A DNA stretch of 64,000 nt, from contig JAXLYE010000002.1 in assembly GCA_046351595.1 (NCBI GenBank), positions 1,304,022 to 1,368,021 of the forward strand, given 5' to 3'. Made by a program: the position numbers and the translations under genes. The DNA is from Polyangia bacterium (GTDB taxonomy: Bacteria; Myxococcota_A; Polyangia; Palsa-1104; JAEUJZ01). Below the pieces are notes generated by a model. The model searched no databases. It saw only the letters and a program-made list of their open reading frames with translations, and was not told the DNA's origin. Below, one piece after another: positions 7,499 to 64,000 of this stretch (its first letter is position 1; the number at the start of each line of letters is the position of its first letter).

Positions 7499-9436
7499 TC
7501 AGGGACCTGGCCCCTCGCCCGGCGCGCCCTCTTGCCGGCCGTACAGGCGGCGGCCCAGGTCGGCGAGCGCGTCCAGCCCGAGCGGCGGCGTGCCCAGCGT
7601 GACGGTCGTCAGCCGGGTCGGCGCCGCGGCGGCGGCCAGGTCCGCGAGCACCTTGCCCTCGCGCTCGCACAGCGCCGCGCACAGCCGGCAGCCCGGGCTC
7701 GCGGCCGCCGTCGCCTGGTTGACGAAGATGCGCGACAGCGCGATGCCCGCGCGCGCGCACGCGGCCAGCAGGTCCTGCGTCTCGGCGTAGGCCAGGTACG
7801 TCGGGATCGTCACCGCGCACAGGCGGGTCTGCTGCGGCGCGGCCAGCAGCCGGCGCAGCGCCTTCAGGTGCTTGGACAGCGCGATCAGCCGGTCGGTGAG
7901 GCGCGGCAGCCGCATCACGCTCTTCTGCTTCAGCAGCACCGCGAACAGCGCCCGCAGCCAGCCCTCCAGAATCGCCGGCATCTCGAGCAGCCGCAGAAGG
8001 TGCCCGGTCGGCGCGGTGTCGAGCACCACGAGCGCGTCGGGCGCCTCCTCCAGGATCTCGGTGAGCCGCGTCAGCGACACGATCTCGTCGAGGCCGGGCG
8101 GCGTCAGGTCGAGCAGCCGCTCGAGCGCGCGGCGATCGAACGCCAGGTCGGCGTTGCGCAGCTTGTGCCGCAGGACGTCCGAGAGCTCGTCCTTGTAGGC
8201 GTCGCGCCAGTCCCGCCACTGCGCCTCGGGATCTGGCGCCAGCGCGGTGAGCCGCGGCGTGATGGGTCGCGGCTCGGCGCCGACCGCGGTGCCGAGCGCC
8301 GCCGACAGCGAGTGCGCCGGATCCGTGGACAGGAGCACCACCGGGCGCTCCACCGACAGCGCCAGCGCCGTCGCGCAGGCCAGCGTGGTCTTGCCGACGC
8401 CGCCCTTGCCCGCGAACACCAGCAGCCGGCGCTCGGGCGGCGGCGGCGGCGCGGGCGCGACGACCTGCGGCGCCACCTCGGGCCCGCCGGCGCGCGGCGC
8501 GGTCGACGGCTCGGGCAGCGGCTGCGCCAGCTCCCACAGCGACACCAGCGCGGCGCGCCCGCGCACCTCCTGCGCGAGCAGCGGCAGGCCCCAGCGCTCC
8601 TGCACCGGCGCGGTCACCAGCCGCGCATCGAGAGCGCCCTGTTGCGCCGCGCGGACGCGGGCGCACTGCGCGCAGCCGCTCTCGGGGCGCAGGCGGTTGA
8701 CGACGAGCGGACCGAGGTGCAGCCGCCGCGCGTGGAGCCGCTCTAAAAACCCGAGCGTCACGTCGATGCACAGCGGCTCGGCCACGAGCGTCGTCACCAG
8801 GCAGCTGCGCTCCGAGCACAAGAGCGCCTGCGTGCGCCGCGCCGACTCTCCGAGCTCGCTGAGCAGGCGGTCCGTCTCGTCCTCGCGGTAGGCGCCGGCG
8901 AAATGCTGCGCGAGGAAGCGGTGCTTGGCCAGCAGGTCATCCAGCGCCTCGACCCAGTCGCGCAAGAGGGCCGGCACGTCGAGCAGCCGCTCGGTGTGGC
9001 CGCTCGGCGCGGTGTCGACGAGGACCGTCTGCGGCGGCGCCGCCTGCGTCCACTCGGCGATGCGCAGGAACGCCAAAAGCTCGTCGAGCCCGGGCAGCGA
9101 CAGGTCGAAGAAGCGGTCGAGGTCCGCCTCGTCGAGGAAGGTGCCGCGCCGCGCGATCTCGCGCAGCACCGCGCCCTTGTGCGCCATGAACTCGTCGAGG
9201 CACTCCTTCGCATCGAGCTCGACGACCCGCAGGTTGGCCGGCAGCGGCTCGTCACCCAGGCAGTCGCGCAGCGAGTGCGCCGGGTCGACCGAGACCAGCA
9301 GGTACGGCGCCTGCGGGTTGTGCACCGAGAGGTACAGCGCCGTCGCCGCGGCGCAGGTCGTCTTGCCGACGCCGCCCTTGCCCGCGAACAGAAGGAGCTG
9401 CAGGTCGGTGCGGCACAGGAAGCTCGGCAAGTTCAT
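7499..9436 (-). CDS. Tandem-domain Get3/TRC40-like (ArsA-family) ATPase with a CxxC motif in both halves
   Basis: Two P-loop NTPase repeats are present (LLFAGKGGVGKTTCAAATA...VDPAHSL and LLVFAGKGGVGKTTLACATA...TDPAHSL). Each half has VN(Q/R)...GCxxCA (SGCAQCARV and PGCRLCAALC), which is the Get3-type zinc/dimer motif rather than the ArsA metalloid-site Cys pattern. Confidence 0.85.
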   Translation of the reverse strand: MNLPSFLCRTDLQLLLFAGKGGVGKTTCAAATALYLSVHNPQAPYLLVSVDPAHSLRDCLGDEPLPANLRVVELDAKECLDEFMAHKGAVLREIARRGTFLDEADLDRFFDLSLPGLDELLAFLRIAEWTQAAPPQTVLVDTAPSGHTERLLDVPALLRDWVEALDDLLAKHRFLAQHFAGAYREDETDRLLSELGESARRTQALLCSERSCLVTTLVAEPLCIDVTLGFLERLHARRLHLGPLVVNRLRPESGCAQCARVRAAQQGALDARLVTAPVQERWGLPLLAQEVRGRAALVSLWELAQPLPEPSTAPRAGGPEVAPQVVAPAPPPPPERRLLVFAGKGGVGKTTLACATALALSVERPVVLLSTDPAHSLSAALGTAVGAEPRPITPRLTALAPDPEAQWRDWRDAYKDELSDVLRHKLRNADLAFDRRALERLLDLTPPGLDEIVSLTRLTEILEEAPDALVVLDTAPTGHLLRLLEMPAILEGWLRALFAVLLKQKSVMRLPRLTDRLIALSKHLKALRRLLAAPQQTRLCAVTIPTYLAYAETQDLLAACARAGIALSRIFVNQATAAASPGCRLCAALCEREGKVLADLAAAAAPTRLTTVTLGTPPLGLDALADLGRRLYGRQEGAPGEGPGP

Positions 9437-9573: not shown

Positions 9574-9588
9574 GAGGGACTGTCCCTC
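9574..9588. promoter_or_regulatory. Perfect 15-bp palindrome GAGGGACtGTCCCTC upstream of the Get3-like gene, followed by an AT-rich tract
   Basis: Seen directly, about 140 bp upstream of the minus-strand start at 9436. The adjacent sequence caacataaagaaaaacgcc is unusually AT-rich. Confidence 0.45.
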
Positions 9589-9794
9589 AACATAAAGAAA
9601 AACGCCGGCACTCGGAATACTTATCTAGGTCTTGCTGCCGAGGGCGAGCTGGCGCGTGCACCCGCCGCAGCGGTATTTCTCGACGCGAGCGGCGCCCGGC
9701 GGAGAGGTGCGTGCCTGCGACCTGGGCCCACAGCCGGTGCCGATGCGCGACTCCTTTCCGTACGCGATTCCTGCGCTCCTGGAGTCACGGTGCT

Positions 9795-9830
9795 CTGATT
9801 GGGAATCTGATTGGGAATCTGATTGGGAAT
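9795..9830. repeat. 12-bp tandem repeat x3 (ctgattgggaat) in a divergent intergenic region
   Basis: Direct reading. The GGGAATC core recurs at 41402-41427 and as the palindrome at 7243-7252. Confidence 0.85.
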
Positions 9831-10329
9831 CGGGTCGCGCGCCGACGGTCGCACCGCCTAGCGGTCCGCCGATGCGCGCCGCTCTCATCGCGCTACAGAC
9901 AGCCGGTTCGCCGACTTCTCGCTCATGTCCTCGGTCTTTCCGGAGTGCGACTGAACATTCGGTTTTTTCGATGAATTCGTACAAAAGATCGGTCTTTTCA
10001 ATATGGGATGATGGCACGCGCGGGCCGCCGATCCGCAGCGTGGGCGCGACGGCGCGCGGACGGTTTCGCGCGCGGCCGCCTCGAGCGCTCCGCTGAGCCG
10101 AGTACGGTCCGCACCGAGGCCGCCGACGCGGGCGCAGATCCGTCTCGTCCCGGGGCGGCGGCGCCGTCGTCGGCAGGAGCCGGTGCGGGGGTGCGGGTGG
10201 ACAGACCGGCGGCGGGCGCGGGGGGCCGGCCGTTACCGGATCCACCTGCCGGTCACGGCCTGGTAGCGCGTGCTCAAGGCCCGATCGTCGGCTCTGTCGG
10301 GCGGCAGGCGGCGCTTGCTGGCGGGCGCG

Positions 10330-32232: not shown

Positions 32233-35903
<3,671 letters not shown>

Positions 35904-35904
<1 letters not shown>

Positions 35905-35940
35905 GACATCGTTCTAAAATTAGAACATCGTCCTAAATCC
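35904..35940. terminator. AT-rich imperfect palindrome (AGGACatcgTTCTAAaaTTAGAAcatcGTCCT) at the convergent junction of the kinase remnant and malQ
   Basis: Seen directly, between the stop codons at 35904 and 35977. It may be a bidirectional terminator or a protein-binding site. Confidence 0.35.
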
Positions 35941-35976: not shown

Positions 35977-37865
35977 CTAGCCCCGCAGCGCCGCGGCCAG
36001 GGCATCGAGCCGCGCCAGGAGCTCGGCGTGCTCGGCTGCGAACCCCGCGCCGCGCGCGCGCACGGCCAGCGCCAGGGCCAGCGGCAGGTTGAGCGCGGCG
36101 TCCTTGCGCAGGCGCGCGCGGTAGTCCGCCGCGTAGTCCGCCGGCACGCGCAGGAACCAGTTCTGCTCGTCGACGGTGCCGGGGCGGTTGTAGATCTGCT
36201 TGAGGCCGAGCAGGTCGGCGAAGAAGACCATGACGTTCTCGGCGCGGCTGGCCAGCAGATCCGCGAGCTTGGCCTGGACCAGGAGGTTCGGATCCGCGGC
36301 CAGGCGCGCGCCGAGCTCGGCGCGTGCGCCCGCATCCGGCGACAGGCGCTCGGCCAGGTACGCGGCCTGCGCGCCCGCGGCCGCCCCGGCCCGCGCCCAG
36401 CCCTCGGCCAAAAGCCAGATCGGCGGCGTGTCGTGGTTCCCCATCATGATCCAGTCCGCGGGCTCGGCGTTCTCGCTGCGGTACACGTCCTCGCGGCGGT
36501 AGAGATCGGCCTTCTGCGTCACACGGAAGCGGCCCATGCGGTGGCGCTCCATCACCCGGCGCAGCGGGTAGGGCAGGGTGCTCAGCACCTCGCACAGCAC
36601 CTCGCGCCCGGCCGCGGCCTCGACGATGGTGTCGATGAGCAGGGTGTAGCGCGCGACCTGGCCGTCGTCGAGCTCGCGCACCCAGCCGTCGTCGTAGCGC
36701 GCCACGTCGCGGCGCAGCTGCTCGGGCCGCGCGATGGCGTAGCGGCCGAGCGCGGGGTGATCCGGCAGGTCCGGCGAGTCGAACAGCCGCGCGCCGCCCT
36801 GCACCGCGCGCAGCGGGTCCGGATCCGCTGCGCGGTAGACCCACGGGCACACCAGGCCGTGCGGGTGATCGATGCGCACGCCGTCGAACTCGCCGAGCAG
36901 CTTGCCGACCCGCGCCGCGATCAGGCGCAGCGCCGGGCCGGGCGCCTGCGGCGTGCCGTACTGCTGCGGGTCGAGCACCGGGTAGCTCCACGGCTGCCCG
37001 TCGGGGTTGGTGCGGCTCGGCGGCGCGCCCATCAGGTAGTCGGTGAGGAACAGCGCGCCGTAGGCCCAGCGATCCTGCACGGACAGGCCGATCTGCAGGT
37101 CGCCGTATACGATGAGGCCGAGCCTGCGCGCGAGCGCCTGCAGGCCGCGGTGCTGCTCGTGCGCGAGGTACTGGCAGAAGGTGTAGAAGCCGATCTCGTC
37201 GGCGTGGCGCTTCGCCAGCGCCTCGCGGCGCAGCATCGCCGGCACGTCGAACCCGGGCGCCGGAAAGAACAGGCGGCGATCGAGCGGCGCCGCGGGGCCC
37301 TGCCAGTGATCGGGGTGGCGGTCGCCGTACTCGCGCAAGAGCGCCGCGAACAGCGCGTCGCGCTCGAGCCACGGCCGCGCCGCCGCGGCGAACGCCTCGA
37401 TCCTCGGGCGCAGCGACGGCTGCGACGGGAGCGCGGCGTACGCCCGGCGCAGCGCCTGCTCCTGCGCGTCGAACAGGTAGCGGTAGCCGGCGAGGCCGCT
37501 CGCGCCCGGTGGCCGGTTTGCGATCACGGACTCGAGCGCCGCGCGCTCGAGCAGCGGCTCGGCGCCGTCCACGAGCGCCGGCAGCGCGATCGACAGCAGG
37601 CTCTTTGAGAAGATCGTGCCGTCGTAGGGCGAGGGGTTCATGCGGCTGGTCTGCCCCTGCGGCCCGAGCAGGACGCCGTTGAAGCCGAGCGCCCGGGCGA
37701 AGCCGAGAAAGTCCGCGGCGCCGCGGCCGTACGGGCTGCCGCGGCCCGTGTCCTCGCCCGGCGCGCTCGGGAAGCTGGCGTCGTGGATGGCGAGCACCAG
37801 GCGGCGCTTGCCCAGCGCCGCGAGCGCGTCCGCGACCAGGCGGTCCTGCTCCGCGACGAGCTCGC

Positions 37866-37869
<4 letters not shown>
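35977..37869 (-). CDS. malQ: 4-alpha-glucanotransferase (amylomaltase, GH77)
   Basis: The length and GH77-like N-terminal pattern (SPYGRG...[15 protein letters not shown]...[11 protein letters not shown]) fit the family. Its start overlaps the treS-pep2 stop. Confidence 0.8.
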
Positions 37870-57899: not shown

Positions 57900-58556
57900 G
57901 TGAAGCCCAACGAGTTCGAGCAGGCGGTGCTTGACCTGGCGATGACGACGAGCGTGCCGCTCACGCGCGCGAACATCCTGTTCTACAGCGGCGCGGGCGC
58001 CCGTCAGGCCGACAAGTGGCTCGACGACATGCTGCGCAGCGGCCTGCTCGAGTTCGACAGCGACGACAGCGGCGAGATCATCTACACCGTCTGCGGCGCC
58101 AAGCGACCGCCGGCCGGGCCGACGCAGCTCACCCGCTGCAGCGCCTGCCGTCGCGCCACCGGCGTCGGCGTGCGCTGCGGGCGCTGCGGCCAGCTCCTCG
58201 ACCCGCAGCTGCGCTCGATCCGGCAGGACATCGAGCGCGCCGGCACCGCGCTCGATCTGGTGCGCGGCAAGGGCGGCAGCCTGCTGCCGCAGCGCGAGGG
58301 CGACAAGAACCTGCTGGTGGCCGGCGCGCTCGGCCTGCTCGGGCCCTTCGGCTGGTTCTACGCGGCGCCGCTGCAGGAGGCGGCCGCGGCCTCGGCGGGG
58401 TTCCTGCTGGCCTACTGGCTGCTGCCGACGATCCTCTTGGTGCCGCTGGTGTCGCTGCTGCTGCCGGTGTCGGCGGTGATCGGCGCGCTGTACGCCTACA
58501 AGCACAACCGCGTCGGCGGCCGCTCCGGCCTGTTCACCGAAGACCGGGGGAGCTGA
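57900..58556 (+). CDS. Membrane protein with an N-terminal helical (wHTH-like) module, a C4 zinc ribbon and two C-terminal TM helices
   Basis: CSACRRATGVGVRCGRCG (CxxC-N11-CxxC) is followed by two hydrophobic helices. The start codon is uncertain: GTG at 57900 or ATG at 57942. Its stop abuts the GTG of the next gene. Confidence 0.55.
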   Translation: MKPNEFEQAVLDLAMTTSVPLTRANILFYSGAGARQADKWLDDMLRSGLLEFDSDDSGEIIYTVCGAKRPPAGPTQLTRCSACRRATGVGVRCGRCGQLLDPQLRSIRQDIERAGTALDLVRGKGGSLLPQREGDKNLLVAGALGLLGPFGWFYAAPLQEAAAASAGFLLAYWLLPTILLVPLVSLLLPVSAVIGALYAYKHNRVGGRSGLFTEDRGS

Positions 58557-59576
58557 GTGGAGCAGGCGCTCGCCAGCGGGGTCGTGCTGTCGTCGGGGCT
58601 CGGGGTGCGGCCGCTGGCCGGTGCGGCGCTCGAGCGTGAGGCGGCGGCGGCGCTGCTCACCGCGGCCCTGCCGCACGACCGCATCGACGTCGTCCTCGAC
58701 GAGAAGCTGTTCGGCGGCAACGGCCGGCGGCCGAGCCAGACCCTGGGCGCCTTCTCGGGTGGCGGCGAGCTGCTCGGCGTCCTGGCCCAGGCCGGGCGCT
58801 TCATCAAGCTCCTGGCGGTGCTGCCCTCGGCGCAGCGGCGCGGCGTCGGCACGGCGCTGCTGCGAGCGGCGCGCGCGTTTGTCGCGGCTCCCGAGGCCGG
58901 CGACGGCGGCCGACCGCGACTGCGCATCGGCGATTGCGCCGGCAACTACCTCTCGCCCGGCGTCGACGAGCGCTACGCCGCGGCACGGGACTTCTTCACG
59001 GCGCGCGGCTTCGTCGAGGTCGGCCGCAACCTCAACCTGCGCGCCGCGCTCGCCGACCACCCGCTCGTCACCGCCGAGCGCGCCGAGGCCCTCGAGCACC
59101 GCGCCCGCGACGCCGGGTACCGCCTGCTCCGCGCCGGCGCCGCCGAGGCCCCGGCGCTGCTCGAGCTCGTCGAGCGCGAGTTCTCGTGGTGGTGGGCCTA
59201 CGAGCTCCGCCGCGCCCTCGGCCCGACGCTGCCGCTCGGTGGCCGGTGGGACGAGGGCGAGCCGACCGCGCACACACCCGAGCTGCCCGAGGGCTCGGGC
59301 GTGCACGTCGCGCTCGATGCCGCGGGCGCGCCCGTCGCCTTCGCGGCGCACGACGGCAACAACCGCGGCCTCGGCTGGTTCGGCCCCATGGGCACGCTGC
59401 CCGCGCACCGCGGTCACGGGCTCGGCGAGGCGCTGCTGCTGCGCTGCCTGCTCGACGTGCGCGACCGCGCTGATGGCGGCGTCATCGCCTGGGTCGGTCC
59501 CGAGGCCTTCTACGCGCGCGCTGCTGGCACGGTGCCGGACCGCCGCTTCACCGTCTACGAGGAGGCCGCAAGCTAG
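58557..59576 (+). CDS. Tandem-GNAT N-acetyltransferase
   Basis: Two acetyl-CoA-binding motifs are present (LLAVLPSAQRRGVGTALL and FGPMGTLPAHRGHGLGEALL). Its GTG start immediately follows the upstream stop. Confidence 0.75.
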   Translation: MEQALASGVVLSSGLGVRPLAGAALEREAAAALLTAALPHDRIDVVLDEKLFGGNGRRPSQTLGAFSGGGELLGVLAQAGRFIKLLAVLPSAQRRGVGTALLRAARAFVAAPEAGDGGRPRLRIGDCAGNYLSPGVDERYAAARDFFTARGFVEVGRNLNLRAALADHPLVTAERAEALEHRARDAGYRLLRAGAAEAPALLELVEREFSWWWAYELRRALGPTLPLGGRWDEGEPTAHTPELPEGSGVHVALDAAGAPVAFAAHDGNNRGLGWFGPMGTLPAHRGHGLGEALLLRCLLDVRDRADGGVIAWVGPEAFYARAAGTVPDRRFTVYEEAAS

Positions 59577-60620
59577 ATGCTGCAGGGGATGTTCGGCACG
59601 CCGCTGCGCGGCATGGTGCTGTGCGCCGGGATGGGCACCCGTCTCGGCACGCTTTCCGACGAGCTGCCCAAGCCGCTCTTGCCGGTCTGCAACCACCCGC
59701 TGGTGACCTACGCGCTCGCGCTCCTGCGCGGCCACGGCGTCACCGAGATCGGCATCAACCTGCACCACCTCGGTGAGCTCATCACCGAGGCGCTGGGCGA
59801 CGGCCAGGACTACGGCGTCGAGATCCAGTACTCGACCGAGCCGACGCTGCTCGGCACCGGCGGCGGCCTGCGCAAGCTCTACGACTTCCTGACCCACGAG
59901 GGGCGCGAGCCGTGCGTGGTCGTCAACGGCAAGCTCCTCGTCGAGGTCGACCTGGAGTCGGTGCTGGCCCTGCACCGTGTCACCGGCGCCGTCGCCACCA
60001 TGGTGCTGCGCGCGACGCCGGACGCCGAGGCCTGGGGCGCGGTCGAGGTCGACGCCGACGGCCGCGTCCACAGCATCCTCGGGCAGCGGGCCCCGATCGG
60101 CACGCCGCGCGGCGGCCTCACCCGCTGCATGTTCACCGGCGTCCACATCGTCGAGCCGCAGCTGCTCCTGCGCCTGCCCGAGGACCAGGAGTCGTGCGTC
60201 GTGCGCCAGGGCTACATCCCGGCGCTGCGCGAGGGCGAGGTGATCAGCGCCTACGTCCTGTCGGGCTACTTCCACGAGCACAGCACCCTCGAGCGCTACC
60301 TGCAGGGCAACCTGAACGCGCTGCGCGGCCACGCCCAGCTCAGCCACCTGCCTGGTCCGCTCGTCGGCATCAGCGCGCGCGCCCAGATCTCGCCGCGCGC
60401 GATCGTCCACGCGCCGGTGTGCATCGGCGCCGGGGTCGTGGTCCAGGACGGCGCCACCGTCGGCCCCGACGTCGTGCTCGGCGAGGGCGCGCGGGTCGAG
60501 CGCGGCGCCCGCATCAGCCGCTCGGTGGTCTTCGCCGGCGCCCAGGTGCGCGGCACCGTGCACAGCTCGATCGTGACGCGCAACGCCACGTATCCCATCA
60601 CGCTTCCCGGCGAGCCTTAG
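59577..60620 (+). CDS. Sugar-phosphate nucleotidyltransferase with a C-terminal left-handed beta-helix (mannose-1-phosphate guanylyltransferase-like NDP-sugar pyrophosphorylase)
   Basis: The G-rich NTP_transferase loop is LCAGMGTRLGTLSDELPKPLLPV. C-terminal hexapeptide repeats are present. Its ATG follows the GNAT stop by one nucleotide. Confidence 0.8.
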   Translation: MLQGMFGTPLRGMVLCAGMGTRLGTLSDELPKPLLPVCNHPLVTYALALLRGHGVTEIGINLHHLGELITEALGDGQDYGVEIQYSTEPTLLGTGGGLRKLYDFLTHEGREPCVVVNGKLLVEVDLESVLALHRVTGAVATMVLRATPDAEAWGAVEVDADGRVHSILGQRAPIGTPRGGLTRCMFTGVHIVEPQLLLRLPEDQESCVVRQGYIPALREGEVISAYVLSGYFHEHSTLERYLQGNLNALRGHAQLSHLPGPLVGISARAQISPRAIVHAPVCIGAGVVVQDGATVGPDVVLGEGARVERGARISRSVVFAGAQVRGTVHSSIVTRNATYPITLPGEP

Positions 60621-60644
60621 TCATAAGCTTGTGTTCATGATTGA

Positions 60645-60656
60645 ATATCAACATAA
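60645..60656. promoter_or_regulatory. AT-rich motif ATATCAACATAA (upstream copy) flanking the 60678-61190 gene
   Basis: It is a direct repeat of the motif at 61208-61219 with 11 of 12 positions identical. Both lie in AT islands in a 72% GC genome. Confidence 0.4.
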
Positions 60657-60677
60657 ACAGCGTCCAGCTGCCCAAGG

Positions 60678-61190
60678 GTGCTCATGAGCGAAAAGCTACA
60701 AGACCGCGCGCTGCAGCGACCGCAGCCGGCCTCCGCCTCGCCCGAAACCGCGACCCAGACCTCGCTCGAGGCTTCGCCCCAGACGGCGCTCACCGTCGAC
60801 CAGCGGACCGAGGCCGAGCTGGCCAAGATCGACGAGGAGATGGACCGCATCATGGCGCGGCCGGGGCAGCAGCAGGCGCTGATGAACCCGCCCGGCCAGG
60901 CGCTACAGCCGGCCGCCGGGCGCAGCCTGACACCGTCGGTGTCGGCGCCGGCCGACGCGGGCGGGCTGCAGCAGATGGTGATGAACTTCATCGTCCCGGG
61001 CGGCGGCTCGCTGATGCGCGGCGCGATCGGCACCGGCGCGCTGCAGCTCGGCATGGCGCTGGCTTCGGTGCCCGTGCTCTTCTTCGTCGCCTGGTGGCTG
61101 GGCGTGCTGATGTTCGTCACCGCCTGGGTGTGGTCGGCGTACAGCGGCGTCAGGTACTTCAATAACTCGACCACGAAGTCCTGGCGCTAA
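60678..61190 (+). CDS. Hypothetical Pro/Gln/Ala-rich protein with a C-terminal TM segment (tail-anchor-like)
   Basis: The codon bias is coherent. A C-terminal hydrophobic helix VPVLFFVAWWLGVLMFVTAWVW is present. No family was recognised. Confidence 0.5.
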   Translation: MLMSEKLQDRALQRPQPASASPETATQTSLEASPQTALTVDQRTEAELAKIDEEMDRIMARPGQQQALMNPPGQALQPAAGRSLTPSVSAPADAGGLQQMVMNFIVPGGGSLMRGAIGTGALQLGMALASVPVLFFVAWWLGVLMFVTAWVWSAYSGVRYFNNSTTKSWR

Positions 61191-61207
61191 CTATTCGCTT
61201 ATATTAT

Positions 61208-61219
61208 ATATCAATATAA
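61208..61219. promoter_or_regulatory. AT-rich motif ATATCAATATAA (downstream copy) within the imperfect palindrome cttatattatatatcaatataag
   Basis: Direct reading. It sits between the hypothetical gene and the ferredoxin gene. Confidence 0.4.
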
Positions 61220-61268
61220 GCTCGCTCTCCCGCCGCCCCGCATTCCAACACAAAACCCGAGGACTGCC

Positions 61269-61652
61269 ATGATCCCGTACGAGAAGCACGTGCTGATCTG
61301 CACCAACCGCCGTGATCCGAACAACCCCAAGGGCTCCTGCGCGCACAGCGGCTCCGAGGCCCTCTGCGAGGTGTTCAAGAAGGAGCTGCACAGCCGCGGG
61401 CTCAAGGGGCGGATGCGGGCGAACGCCTCGGGCTGCCTCGACCAGTGCGCGCACGGCCCGACGGTGGTGGTCTACCCCGATGCGGTCTGGTACCAGGTCA
61501 AGACCGCCGAGGATGCGCGCGAGATCGTCGAGCAGCACCTGTGCGGAGGCCAGCCCGTCGAGCGGCTGCGCATCGACCAGAAGGACGGCGGCACGGACGG
61601 CGCCAACGACAGCGGCGGCAAGGACAAGGCCGGCGACAAGCCGTCGGTCTGA
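61269..61652 (+). CDS. Thioredoxin-like [2Fe-2S] ferredoxin
   Basis: The Cys pattern is C12-C24...C56-x3-C60 (ICTNRRD...GSCAHSG...GCLDQCAHGP). Confidence 0.75.
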   Translation: MIPYEKHVLICTNRRDPNNPKGSCAHSGSEALCEVFKKELHSRGLKGRMRANASGCLDQCAHGPTVVVYPDAVWYQVKTAEDAREIVEQHLCGGQPVERLRIDQKDGGTDGANDSGGKDKAGDKPSV

Positions 61653-61656
61653 GCCT

Positions 61657-62727
61657 CTAGCGCGGCAGGCGCTGCGAGTACGCGAGGCCGAGGTATGCGG
61701 TGTGCCGCTGGTACGACGGGCCGGCGTCGCGGGGCAGGCTGAAGAAGCCGGTGTAGCGGGCGCTCACCGCGAAGCCGCGGCCGAGCGGGCGCTCCAGGTC
61801 GAGCAGCGCCAGCGAGCGGTTGTCATCGTCGACGTTGCCGGCGGGCACGAACAGCCCGGCGGTGCCGGACAAGAGGTTCAGCTGCCCCTTGGCCGTCACG
61901 TACAGGTCGCCGGGCAGGCGGAAGGCCAGCTTGAGCAGCGGCAGGTGGCGCTGGTAGCTCTCCTGGGCCTTGCTGCTGAAGTTGAGCTGCGCGGTGTAGC
62001 CGAGCTGCAGCAGCACCGGCCCCTGCCACGTCGCGGCGCCGCCGAGCTGCAGGAACAGGTCGGTGCGCGCGCCCATGTAGCCGCGGTACTCGAAGCGGGC
62101 GTGGCTCGTCAGGTCGAAGTCGTGGCCGAGCTCGGGGTCGCCGGCGTGCAGGTGCGCCCCGAAGCGGCCGGTCACTGACGGCGCCAGGAAGCTGAACCCG
62201 GAGTCGGGCTTGTACTGGAAGAGCTGGCCGCCGACGTCGAGGCCGCCCTCGATGCGGTGCCGCTCGCCCAGCGGTCGCGCGGCGAGCAGGCGCAGTGCCG
62301 CCTGCAGCGAGCGCAGGTCGCGGCTCTCCTCGGGCGCGGCCGGCGCCTGGAACGCGTCGTAGTAGTCGATCGCGCCGGTCAGCCGCACCCGCTCGAGCTG
62401 CGCGCCGTGCTCGTAGCCGAGCTGCACGACGCCGACGTTCTGGTCCTGCAGCGTCGGCAGGAGGTAGATCTTGCCGCCGGCGCTGAGCTGCACGCGCAGC
62501 CGCTGCCGCGGACCGGCGTAGGCAAGCGAGCCGCTGGCCAGCGCGCGCACGAGCGGCCCGGCGCGCGGCTGCAGGGTCGGCGGTGTCGTCGGCGGCGTCG
62601 TCGGCGGCTCGACCGCGACGCGGCTGGCGTTGCTGTCGTACTCGGCCCCGACGTCGGCGGTGACCGTGCCGCGCAGCGCCGCGGGCTGCAGCGCAGCGAA
62701 GACGAGCAGGCCGGCCCAGGCAGACAT
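61657..62727 (-). CDS. Putative outer-membrane beta-barrel protein
   Basis: It has a signal peptide MSAWAGLLVFAALQPAALRG, alternating beta-strand-like segments and a C-terminal aromatic-rich end. The in-frame 5' extension upstream is an (LRQR)n translation of a non-coding repeat, so the start is set at 62727. Confidence 0.55.
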   Translation of the reverse strand: MSAWAGLLVFAALQPAALRGTVTADVGAEYDSNASRVAVEPPTTPPTTPPTLQPRAGPLVRALASGSLAYAGPRQRLRVQLSAGGKIYLLPTLQDQNVGVVQLGYEHGAQLERVRLTGAIDYYDAFQAPAAPEESRDLRSLQAALRLLAARPLGERHRIEGGLDVGGQLFQYKPDSGFSFLAPSVTGRFGAHLHAGDPELGHDFDLTSHARFEYRGYMGARTDLFLQLGGAATWQGPVLLQLGYTAQLNFSSKAQESYQRHLPLLKLAFRLPGDLYVTAKGQLNLLSGTAGLFVPAGNVDDDNRSLALLDLERPLGRGFAVSARYTGFFSLPRDAGPSYQRHTAYLGLAYSQRLPR

Positions 62728-62766
62728 CGCGGCGCAGGATACCGCAAGCCCGCGCTGCCTCAGCCG

Positions 62767-62817
62767 TAGTCTCTGCCGCAGTCTCAGCCGCAGTCTCTGC
62801 CGTAGTCTCTGCCGTAG
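62767..62817. repeat. 12-bp tandem repeat x4 (yagtctcwgccg) in the divergent promoter region
   Basis: Direct reading. Confidence 0.8.
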
Positions 62818-62906
62818 CTTTGGGCACGGCTTTTGTGCCTCGCGGTCCGCGGCCCGCGCCCGCTGCCCGCTTGACACCCCGGGCCCGTCGGAACTATGAC
62901 GCGAGC

Positions 62907-64000
62907 ATGAGGCTTCCCTACGCCCCGTCGAGCCGCAAGCCCGTCCGTGCCGCCCGCCTGCTCGGTGTCCCCGGTGTTTGTGACTCGCGCGGCGGTGCCC
63001 GTCGTGGTACGGGCGCGGCCGCGGCTGCGCGGTGGCTGGTGCTCGGCGCGCTCGGGCTCGGCCTGGGCTGCTTCGCGGCCGGCTGCGGCGAGGGCGGCCG
63101 GGCGCGCTTCGGCACCAGCCTGTTCGTCGGCGCCGACTTCAACGGCTGGTCCAAGAGCGATCCGGCGGCCGAGCTGATCTGGGACGGCGAGCGCTACCGC
63201 GGCGTGGTCACGCTGCCCGGCGACGAGCTGGAGCTGCGGCTGTACGCGCCGACGACGGACCTGCTCATCGGCCACCCGCGCGGCACCGTGGCGCAGGCCG
63301 TGCCGTCGACGTCGCAGGTGGTGGCGGGCGAGGCCGACGTGGCGCTGCTGCGGCTCGCGGTGCCGCTGCTCGCGCGCTACGAGCTGTCGCTGTCCCCGCA
63401 GAGCGGCGAGCTGCACATCGACCTCGCGCCCGACGCCGAGAGCCAGCAGGGGCCGGCCGCGGCGGCGCTGGTGCAGGCGCTGCGCGGCGCCGATCGCGCG
63501 TCCCCGTCCGAGCAGAAGCAGCGCGCCGCCGACCTGCGCGACACGCTCACGCGCCTGGCCGCCGAGACGCCGCTGGTGTGGGAGGGCGGCGAGGGCACGG
63601 CGCACCGCGGCCTGACGTTTCTGCACCTGGGCGCCGTCGACCACAGCGAGCTCTCGATCGTCGGCGACTTCAACGGCTGGGGCGCCCCGAGCGACCGCAT
63701 GACCTTCGTGCTCGACGGCACCGTCGCCTACCGCGGCCGCCGCGCCGCCGGGGCGCGCCTGGAGTACCGCTTCGACCTGCACGGCCAGCGCTACGCCGAC
63801 CCGCGCAACCCCGAGGTCGCCTGGGACGGGCGCGTGCTGCCGCCGTCGCCGAGCAACATCCTGGGCGGCAACGTCGGCGAGCTGAACTCGGTCGCCTACG
63901 CGCCCGGCTACGTCGAGATGGGGCCGCGCCTGCGCCGCCTGCCGCTGCCCCCGGACGCGCCGAGCCCCGAGGTGCTGGTCCACCTGCCGGCCGGCTACGC
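62907..64000 (+). CDS. Lipoprotein with two CBM48/E-set-like glycan-binding modules followed by a putative esterase domain (3' end outside the window)
   Basis: This ORF is open to the window end and is absent from the ORF track, which lists only ORFs terminated inside the window. The lipobox is LGLGLGC. Two DFNGW modules are typical of CBM48. VLVHLPAGY is typical of the esterase-D/enterochelin-esterase family N-terminus. Confidence 0.6.
   Translation, partial: MRLPYAPSSRKPVRAARLLGVPGVCDSRGGARRGTGAAAAARWLVLGALGLGLGCFAAGCGEGGRARFGTSLFVGADFNGWSKSDPAAELIWDGERYRGVVTLPGDELELRLYAPTTDLLIGHPRGTVAQAVPSTSQVVAGEADVALLRLAVPLLARYELSLSPQSGELHIDLAPDAESQQGPAAAALVQALRGADRASPSEQKQRAADLRDTLTRLAAETPLVWEGGEGTAHRGLTFLHLGAVDHSELSIVGDFNGWGAPSDRMTFVLDGTVAYRGRRAAGARLEYRFDLHGQRYADPRNPEVAWDGRVLPPSPSNILGGNVGELNSVAYAPGYVEMGPRLRRLPLPPDAPSPEVLVHLPAGY

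Follow-up and report, generated by a model that had tools for sequence, protein, structure and literature searches.

Genes and intergenic features of the locus

The window analysed here, that is, the whole stretch of 64 kb, has a GC content of 72.1%, and the locus consists of three genes on the same strand, separated by two AT-rich gaps (Table 1). The sugar-1-phosphate nucleotidyltransferase carries a C-terminal left-handed beta-helix, and its NCBIfam matches, to mannose-1-P guanylyltransferase-like (3.3e-50) and MurU-like (3e-34) models, were both below cut-off. Farther upstream of it, the genome encodes a tandem-GNAT protein and a 218-aa membrane protein without a family match. The putative thioredoxin-like [2Fe-2S] ferredoxin was matched by the NCBIfam models fdxn_Azotob (9e-23) and fdxn_Clost (3e-22), both below their equivalog cut-offs, and by Pfam 2Fe-2S_thioredx (6e-4; 20.1 bits against a cut-off of 24.8). 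A reading of its sequence places cysteines, as candidate cluster ligands, at positions 11, 24, 33, 56, 60 and 101.

Between these two genes lies that of a small membrane protein. An ORF of 513 bp had been described here in the earlier note; the ORF stands, but its start is better read as ATG 60684, which gives 507 bp, than as GTG 60678, because AAGGG lies 5–9 nt 5′ of this ATG and all homologues start with MSEK. The gaps on both sides of the gene belong to the 14 AT-rich islands of the window and have a GC content of 47–56% in 100-nt windows, which agrees with the previous description of two AT islands in 72% GC DNA.

Table 1. Genes and sequence elements of the locus (positions within the 64-kb window)
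Feature	Position	Strand	Remarks
Sugar-1-phosphate nucleotidyltransferase gene	59577..60620	+	347 aa; Pfam NTP_transferase 4.7e-24 and Hexapep
Upstream intergenic gap, with motif copy 1	60621..60683	+	63 nt; 49–56% GC
Block TTGAATATCAACATAAACAGCGTCCAGCTGCC	60641..60672	+	Identical in the related locus L008 (pairwise alignment); the 20 nt 5′ of it strongly diverged
Motif copy 1, ATATCAACATAA	60645..60656	+	27 nt 5′ of the small-gene ATG
Core of motif copy 1, ATCAACATAA	60647–60656	+	
Shine-Dalgarno-like AAGGGTG for ATG 60684	60674..60680	+	Read from sequence
Small membrane protein gene	60684..61190	+	168 aa, MSEK...; 507 bp
Downstream intergenic gap, with motif copy 2	61191..61268	+	78 nt
Imperfect palindrome/hairpin GCTTATATT-ATATATC-AATATAAGC	61197..61221	+	Arms 61197–61205 and 61213–61221; loop and 3′ arm overlap motif copy 2
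Motif copy 2, ATATCAATATAA	61208..61219	+	49 nt 5′ of the ferredoxin ATG
Shine-Dalgarno GAGGA of the ferredoxin gene	61259..61263	+	Read from sequence; conserved in L008
Thioredoxin-like [2Fe-2S] ferredoxin gene	61269..61652	+	127 aa

Each gap contains one copy of a 12-nt motif. The two copies are identical at 11 of 12 positions, as noted before, lie on the same (+) strand and are the only matches at two mismatches or fewer in the 64-kb window, where 0.07 are expected from whole-window shuffles. When the null preserves the AT-richness of the local sequence, the probability of a repeat at least this good (≥11/12) is ~0.008, and of the 91 possible pairings of AT islands in the window, 3 show the same similarity. 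Judged from the window alone, the repeat pair is no more than suggestive.

Gene order in related loci

Related loci (~20 distinct) were gathered by an exact-protein look-up, a homology search and two collection scans; most of them are labelled Myxococcales or Polyangia MAGs. The order 218-aa protein, GNAT protein, nucleotidyltransferase, small protein and ferredoxin was found in every one of them. In most relatives, the gaps on either side of the small gene span 15–38 nt and the motif is absent; in these motif-less loci, the upstream gap measures ~15–35 nt and the downstream gap 22–38 nt.

A single gene bracketed by direct repeats is also what a small inserted element might leave behind, with the repeats as a target-site duplication or as terminal-repeat scars of the event that placed the gene at 60645–61219. 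Such an origin, proposed in the earlier note, is hardly credible here. The gene has the same two neighbours in all ~20 related loci, in which the repeats are mostly absent; none of these loci presents an empty site, and the segment whose absence from relatives was to indicate an insertion is present in every related locus found. That the gene occurs in synteny without the repeats, an outcome foreseen in the earlier note as adverse, thus speaks against insertion. At 69–78%, the GC content of the small ORF is the same as that of its flanks. The segment holds this single ORF, without a Pfam or NCBIfam family, and contains no transposase or integrase gene, and no terminal inverted repeats bracketing it were found. 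Moreover, other genes carry the motif too, as a single copy or as tandem copies. Synteny in ~20 loci refutes the idea of an inserted-element remnant and, as far as these sequence comparisons indicate, the small gene is not an insertion.

Conservation of the motif in distant relatives

With window statistics that are suggestive and no stronger, the case for the motif rests on comparative data. Both copies are present in L008 (95% protein identity), copy 2 being identical to that of the window. Substitutions between these two sequences cluster 5′ of the upstream motif; from TTGAAT onward, 32 nt show none. More distantly, the motif core ATCRAYATAA was found again at the same positions in relatives with 49–53% protein identity (L003 and L022). 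L022 (53% protein identity, 62% DNA identity in the coding sequence) carries the exact 12-mer in an orthologous upstream gap of 99 nt, inside a 23/28-nt block common to the window, and an inverted copy, ATGTCGAT, 8 nt downstream of it. In the upstream gap of L003 (52% protein identity), ATATCGACATAA lies 23 nt 5′ of the ATG, together with two further, weaker tandem copies 21 and 25 nt apart; downstream, AATCGACATAA occupies the position of copy 2 and begins within the small-gene stop codon. A third arrangement is found in L013 and L014, where the motif is absent at the small gene and two tandem copies, 19 nt apart, lie upstream of fdhD, 4 kb away. The proximal of these ends 6 nt 5′ of the fdhD ATG, without a Shine-Dalgarno sequence.

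The consensus of these copies is approximately WATATCRACATAAA, and the ATC-A-ATAA columns are invariant in all nine aligned instances. With shuffles that preserve the composition of each gap, the best match was 12/12 in the L022 upstream gap (P<5e-5), 11/12 in the L003 upstream gap (P=5e-4), 11/12 in the gap upstream of fdhD in L014 (P=0.002) and 9/12 in the L003 downstream gap (P=0.011). Each of the nine aligned copies has the orientation of its downstream gene, the sole exception being the extra inverted copy in L022, and the copies are located 6–57 nt upstream of their start codons. Gaps that bear the motif are 62–99 nt long, compared with 15–38 nt for motif-less orthologous gaps. In ~250 kb of sequence (the window and the related loci), PWM and pattern scans returned strong matches only at this gene pair and at fdhD of L013/L014; the motif is therefore not a common feature of AT-rich promoters in this sequence, which was the other outcome that could have told against it.

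The distribution of the motif is patchy and covers four independent lineages. In the protein tree, the motif-bearing loci do not form a single clade: the window and L008 group with L005 (83% protein identity), from which the motif is absent, with L022 as their sister, and L003 is sister to a large motif-less clade. The motif has thus been lost or gained several times. As for fdhD, in four other lineages it lies 10–37 nt behind an RNB-family gene without the motif, the gap being 84 nt in L013/L014. With the motif absent from these four FdhD loci, a test for an fdhD regulon showed no gene-specific association.

It is quite improbable, in our judgement, that the motif has no specific function, being either a by-product of low-complexity AT-rich spacers or the outcome of neutral descent and drift. 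The locally matched probability and the 3 of 91 island pairs given above would fit such an origin, as would the absence of the motif from most relatives, and the conservation between the window and L008 is uninformative because the two are too close (third codon positions 86–94% identical). Against it stand the exact 12-mer and the 11/12 match in orthologous gaps of loci whose coding DNA is 62–69% identical, the reappearance of the motif in front of an unrelated gene of a different lineage, the uniform orientation and the invariant core. These observations indicate that the repeats are a conserved motif, presumably cis-regulatory, whose recurrence is well beyond composition-matched chance.

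A literature search on the motif strings returned primers and unrelated sequences only, and one on myxobacterial start-site mapping gave nothing usable. A partial copy of the motif, CTCAACATAAAG, lies in the window at position 9586.

A putative promoter or operator element

On balance, we consider it probable that the motif is a lineage-restricted promoter or operator element, read by a putative dedicated factor. In most Polyangia relatives, the tight gaps of 15–38 nt suggest that the small gene and the ferredoxin gene are co-transcribed with the nucleotidyltransferase gene. In a few lineages, including this one, gaps of 62–99 nt carry the motif, which we infer to be the core of an internal promoter or an operator overlapping one. 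Its reader could be an alternative sigma factor or a transcription factor, and the outcome would be that the small membrane protein gene and the ferredoxin gene are transcribed independently of the upstream gene and in coordination with each other. Action on transcription initiation is proposed because of the expansion of the gaps, the orientation towards the downstream gene and the same pattern at fdhD; the presence of the same element at two adjacent genes implies co-regulation, presumably by one factor acting on both copies. Of the meanings that the earlier note had considered for the repeats, that of paired operator sites or transcription signals is the one that survives, on the basis of conserved place and orientation in distant relatives, with a gene behind each copy.

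Like known intra-operon promoters and operators, the motif is a short, oriented and conserved AT-rich element in a gap that relatives keep tight, and its presence at two adjacent genes is what is seen in members of a regulon. It differs from intra-operon promoters in lacking a canonical −35/−10 pair. The 3′ half, YATAAN, resembles a −10 hexamer, but the final T, which is usually essential, is absent. When the hexamers were required to be 16–18 nt apart and the −10 to have A as its second and T as its sixth base, no sigma-70 pair was detected in 59500–62000, nor on the coding strand in L003, L022 and L014. Registers placed by eye fail because the −10 lacks its final T or because the −35 is not conserved in L008: TTGTGT, the one −35 candidate of the window, reads CTGCGC there. 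A sigma-70 promoter was therefore rejected. An ECF-type promoter (AAC...CGT), considered by eye only, would have a spacing of ~8–13 nt, which is too short. The reverse complement of the motif reads TTGATA, a good −35, and the scanner gave antisense-strand matches in L022 (TCGACA-16-TATTAT) and L014 (TTGATA-18-AAAAAT); an opposite-strand promoter was rejected, given that the window has no matching −10 and that such a promoter would drive antisense transcription. The arrangement of the proximal fdhD copy in L013/L014 fits a leaderless start. The spacing of tandem copies by about two helical turns (19–25 nt in L003 and L013/L014) and the inverted copy of L022 point to a DNA-binding regulator more than to a promoter core.

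Among the known regulator sites, the operator of the FNR/CRP family, TTGAT-N4-ATCAA, is similar in part. The motif includes ATCAA, the upstream fdhD copy in L013 (TGAT-TTTT-ATCAA) agrees with 9 of 10 FNR-box positions, and ferredoxin and FdhD genes are what we take to be plausible redox or anaerobic targets. However, TGAT and ATCA are separated by 4 nt in L013/L014, by 5 nt in the window and by 6 nt in L022, and none of the downstream copies has the left half, so that a dimer site of fixed geometry is not conserved and an FNR/CRP-type operator was rejected. The IHF site is WATCAANNNNTTR, and WATCAR is present in every copy of the motif, but the TTR four bases downstream is absent from all of them, AAA, AAG or AAC being found there. 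In comparisons by eye, none of the consensus sequences of Fur, Zur, IscR, NrdR, ArgR, DnaA, dif/Xer, LytTR, IHF and FNR fits across the copies.

A more far-reaching version, which we put forward tentatively and regard as rather unlikely, is that a putative Polyangia-specific regulator or alternative sigma factor recognises the motif, and that copies of the motif have been gained repeatedly in expanded gaps. Were this true, operon-internal genes (those of the small membrane protein, the [2Fe-2S] ferredoxin and FdhD) would have been turned into independently controlled units, as a small regulon related to redox or Fe-S functions or through a portable promoter module.

To our knowledge, almost nothing is known about promoters or regulons in uncultured Polyangia. 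If the promoter or operator reading is correct, it provides a defined cis-element, WATATCRACATAAA, for these bacteria, links a conserved small membrane protein, a thioredoxin-like ferredoxin and, in one lineage, FdhD through one regulatory input, and illustrates how genes inside an operon may acquire their own control region. General concepts would be unchanged, a lineage-restricted cis-regulatory motif being a familiar kind of signal.

The downstream palindrome and RNA-level readings

The imperfect palindrome described previously at the downstream copy is indeed there, with 9-nt arms and a 7-nt loop (−8.3 kcal/mol, z = −2.1). It begins 7 nt past the stop codon of the small gene, where a terminator ending its transcription might be expected, and in L003 a hairpin of −23.7 kcal/mol is formed at the same place by the 5′ half of the motif and its inverted copy. 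We nevertheless regard a terminator as very improbable, since the stem in the window is nearly all A-U and lacks a U tract, and a scan for intrinsic terminators at 61190–61240 found none. In L008, a 1-nt deletion reduces the hairpin to −1.9 kcal/mol while the motif is kept, the L003 hairpin is no better than shuffles (z −1.3), and the upstream copies would be left unexplained. The palindrome itself is not conserved.

A role in the RNA was also considered, in which the motif would be an intercistronic element of a polycistronic mRNA: an AU-rich processing site of the RNase E/G type, a ribosome standby site or translation enhancer, or a coupled uORF with rare codons. Every copy lies between co-directional genes, on the sense strand, and in all six upstream copies an ATG is located 3–6 nt 5′ of the core. 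The short ORF opened by this ATG terminates, in the window, L008, L013 and L014, in an ATGA that overlaps the main start; in L003, the overlap is 7 nt. In the window, six consecutive codons of this ORF end in A or T, in a genome of 72% GC. These features notwithstanding, a function at the RNA level seems unlikely to us. The motif is read in three frames (IDIK in L003/L014, YQHK in the window and IST-stop in L022), so that no peptide is conserved, and the downstream copies (window, L008 and L003) have no upstream ATG at all; a conserved uORF peptide was rejected on these grounds. AU-richness alone would not require the core to keep its G/C positions, as it does. No conserved fold was found, and Rfam gave 0 matches at E<=1 in 59000–63000.

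The small membrane protein and its C-terminal module

The 168-aa protein is composed of a disordered or helical N-terminal part followed by a C-terminal hydrophobic module of two segments, and no Pfam or NCBIfam family matches it. Of 5.8 billion clustered proteins, only six proved to be close homologues. When 1.84 billion representatives were searched with a profile, 131 matches were obtained, nearly all of them restricted to the C-terminal part (approximately profile positions 75–160), and many are stand-alone proteins of 66–130 aa. On its own, as a small protein, the C-terminal module is widespread. Its pattern is N-x-h-h-P-G-x-G-S/T...G....G..Q-h-G, followed by two hydrophobic segments and W-S..S-G. 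In this it resembles the small 'PGxG' two-helix modules, which have the pattern, the two hydrophobic segments and W-S..S-G in common. Several members of the module also show weak matches (E 0.001–0.15) to Pfam Spec3/stum (PF15795), but none of these reaches the Pfam gathering score, and the module is without a curated family.

The absence of a signal peptide, the soluble N-terminal part and the hydrophobic C-terminal end are shared with tail-anchored proteins (clients of Get3/ArsA or YidC), and the protein had indeed been suggested as a potential tail-anchored client with a single C-terminal TM helix. Neither proposal is borne out. In the window protein, the uncharged hydrophobic stretch spans 35 residues (122–156), with 12 residues after it. 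Across the homologues, the stretch is 35–44 residues long, and in 17 of 19 it is split by one K/R into parts of ~14 and 20–26 aa; stand-alone relatives show G/P/H breaks at the position of this split. Unlike tail anchors, the module also exists as a stand-alone two-segment protein of 66–100 aa. An AlphaFold (AF2) model draws one continuous helix of 50 residues (115–164), at a confidence too low to be decisive (mean pLDDT 58.7, from an alignment of seq­uences numbering seven). The length of the stretch and its split make a classical single-span tail anchor less likely than a helical hairpin or an interfacial helix combined with a single span. The main practical value of the analysis is a negative one, in that the locus does not represent a mobile insertion and the small protein provides no evidence for a bacterial tail-anchor pathway. 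The N-terminal part of the protein (MSEK...ELAKIDEEMD...ALQPPxGR) is confined to a few Polyangia clusters.

The C-terminal module of the small membrane protein

The last 74 residues of the 168-aa membrane protein whose gene lies between two copies of the AT-rich motif (core ATCRAYATAA) form a widespread membrane module: at a cut-off of E<=1e-3 it has 131 representatives, which include many stand-alone proteins of 66–130 aa. Some distant relatives are fusions to zinc ribbons or winged-helix domains, as judged from weak Pfam hits. No Pfam family covers the module, and only sub-threshold Spec3/stum-like matches were obtained, which makes it a candidate for the definition of a new small-membrane-protein family. 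The earlier note had regarded the small protein as a potential tail-anchored client; the sole candidate link to this idea within the window is an ArsA/Get3-family ATPase, by family only, whose gene is separated from the motif-flanked gene by 51 kb.

Features noted in the window and in related loci
Feature	Locus	Position	Strand	Details
ArsA/Get3-family ATPase	Window	7499-9436	-	645 aa, two-domain; Pfam ArsA_ATPase, 1.6e-83
Partial motif core	Window	9586-9595		CTCAACATAAAG; non-coding, upstream of the ArsA-like gene
Tandem repeat	Window	9800-9836		tgggaatctgat, ~3 copies; ~200 nt beyond the partial core
Paired near-palindromic units	Window	35901-35936		TTAGGACATCGTTCTAA-AA-TTAGAACATCGTCCTAA
218-aa protein	Window	57900-58556	+	CxxC...CxxC pairs, hydrophobic C-terminus
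Short ORF over motif	Window	60637-60687		Peptide MIEYQHKQRPAAQGCS
C-terminal membrane module	Window	60966-61187		74 aa of the small protein
Strong hairpin	L003	6495-6535		GAATCGAC...GTCGATTC; -23.7 kcal/mol, z -1.3
Short ORF over motif	L008	1778-1828		
Distal motif copy with 5' flank	L013	~10170-10195	-	ATGATTTTTATCAAC; upstream of fdhD
Distal motif copy	L014	10180-10200	-	ATCGAC; upstream of fdhD

Short ORFs and other elements at the motif

Short ORFs span the motif in the window and in L008, the locus encoding a 95% identical small protein, as well as in L013 and L014, where two tandem motif copies precede fdhD. All four are 15–16 codons long; their ATG is located immediately 5' of the motif, and their stop codon overlaps the main start codon as ATGA. 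The window's ORF has six A/T-ending codons in succession, in a genome of 72% GC. Comparison between lineages revealed no conservation of the encoded peptide. The distal copy in L013 with its flank contains TGAT-N4-ATCAA, which agrees with an FNR-type box at 9 of 10 positions; L014 reads ATCGAC here, and the spacing of the two half-sites in L013 is not preserved in other lineages. In L003, whose small protein is 52% identical, the downstream motif copy forms the 5' arm of the hairpin. After the hairpin comes CCCATAAAAAG, another stretch that resembles a -10 element or the motif. The partial core near the ArsA-like gene is oriented away from that gene.

Other features of the window

One of the 14 AT-rich islands in the window is a 72-nt gap between convergent ORFs (32233-35904, forward; 35977-37869, reverse), the site of two near-palindromic units of 17 nt each. 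As direct repeats they are identical at 15 of 17 positions, and their outer and inner arms are complementary to each other; they could constitute an operator or a bidirectional terminator. The 218-aa protein had no match in Pfam or NCBIfam; it occupies the first position in a five-gene cluster, conserved in the relatives for which calls were available.
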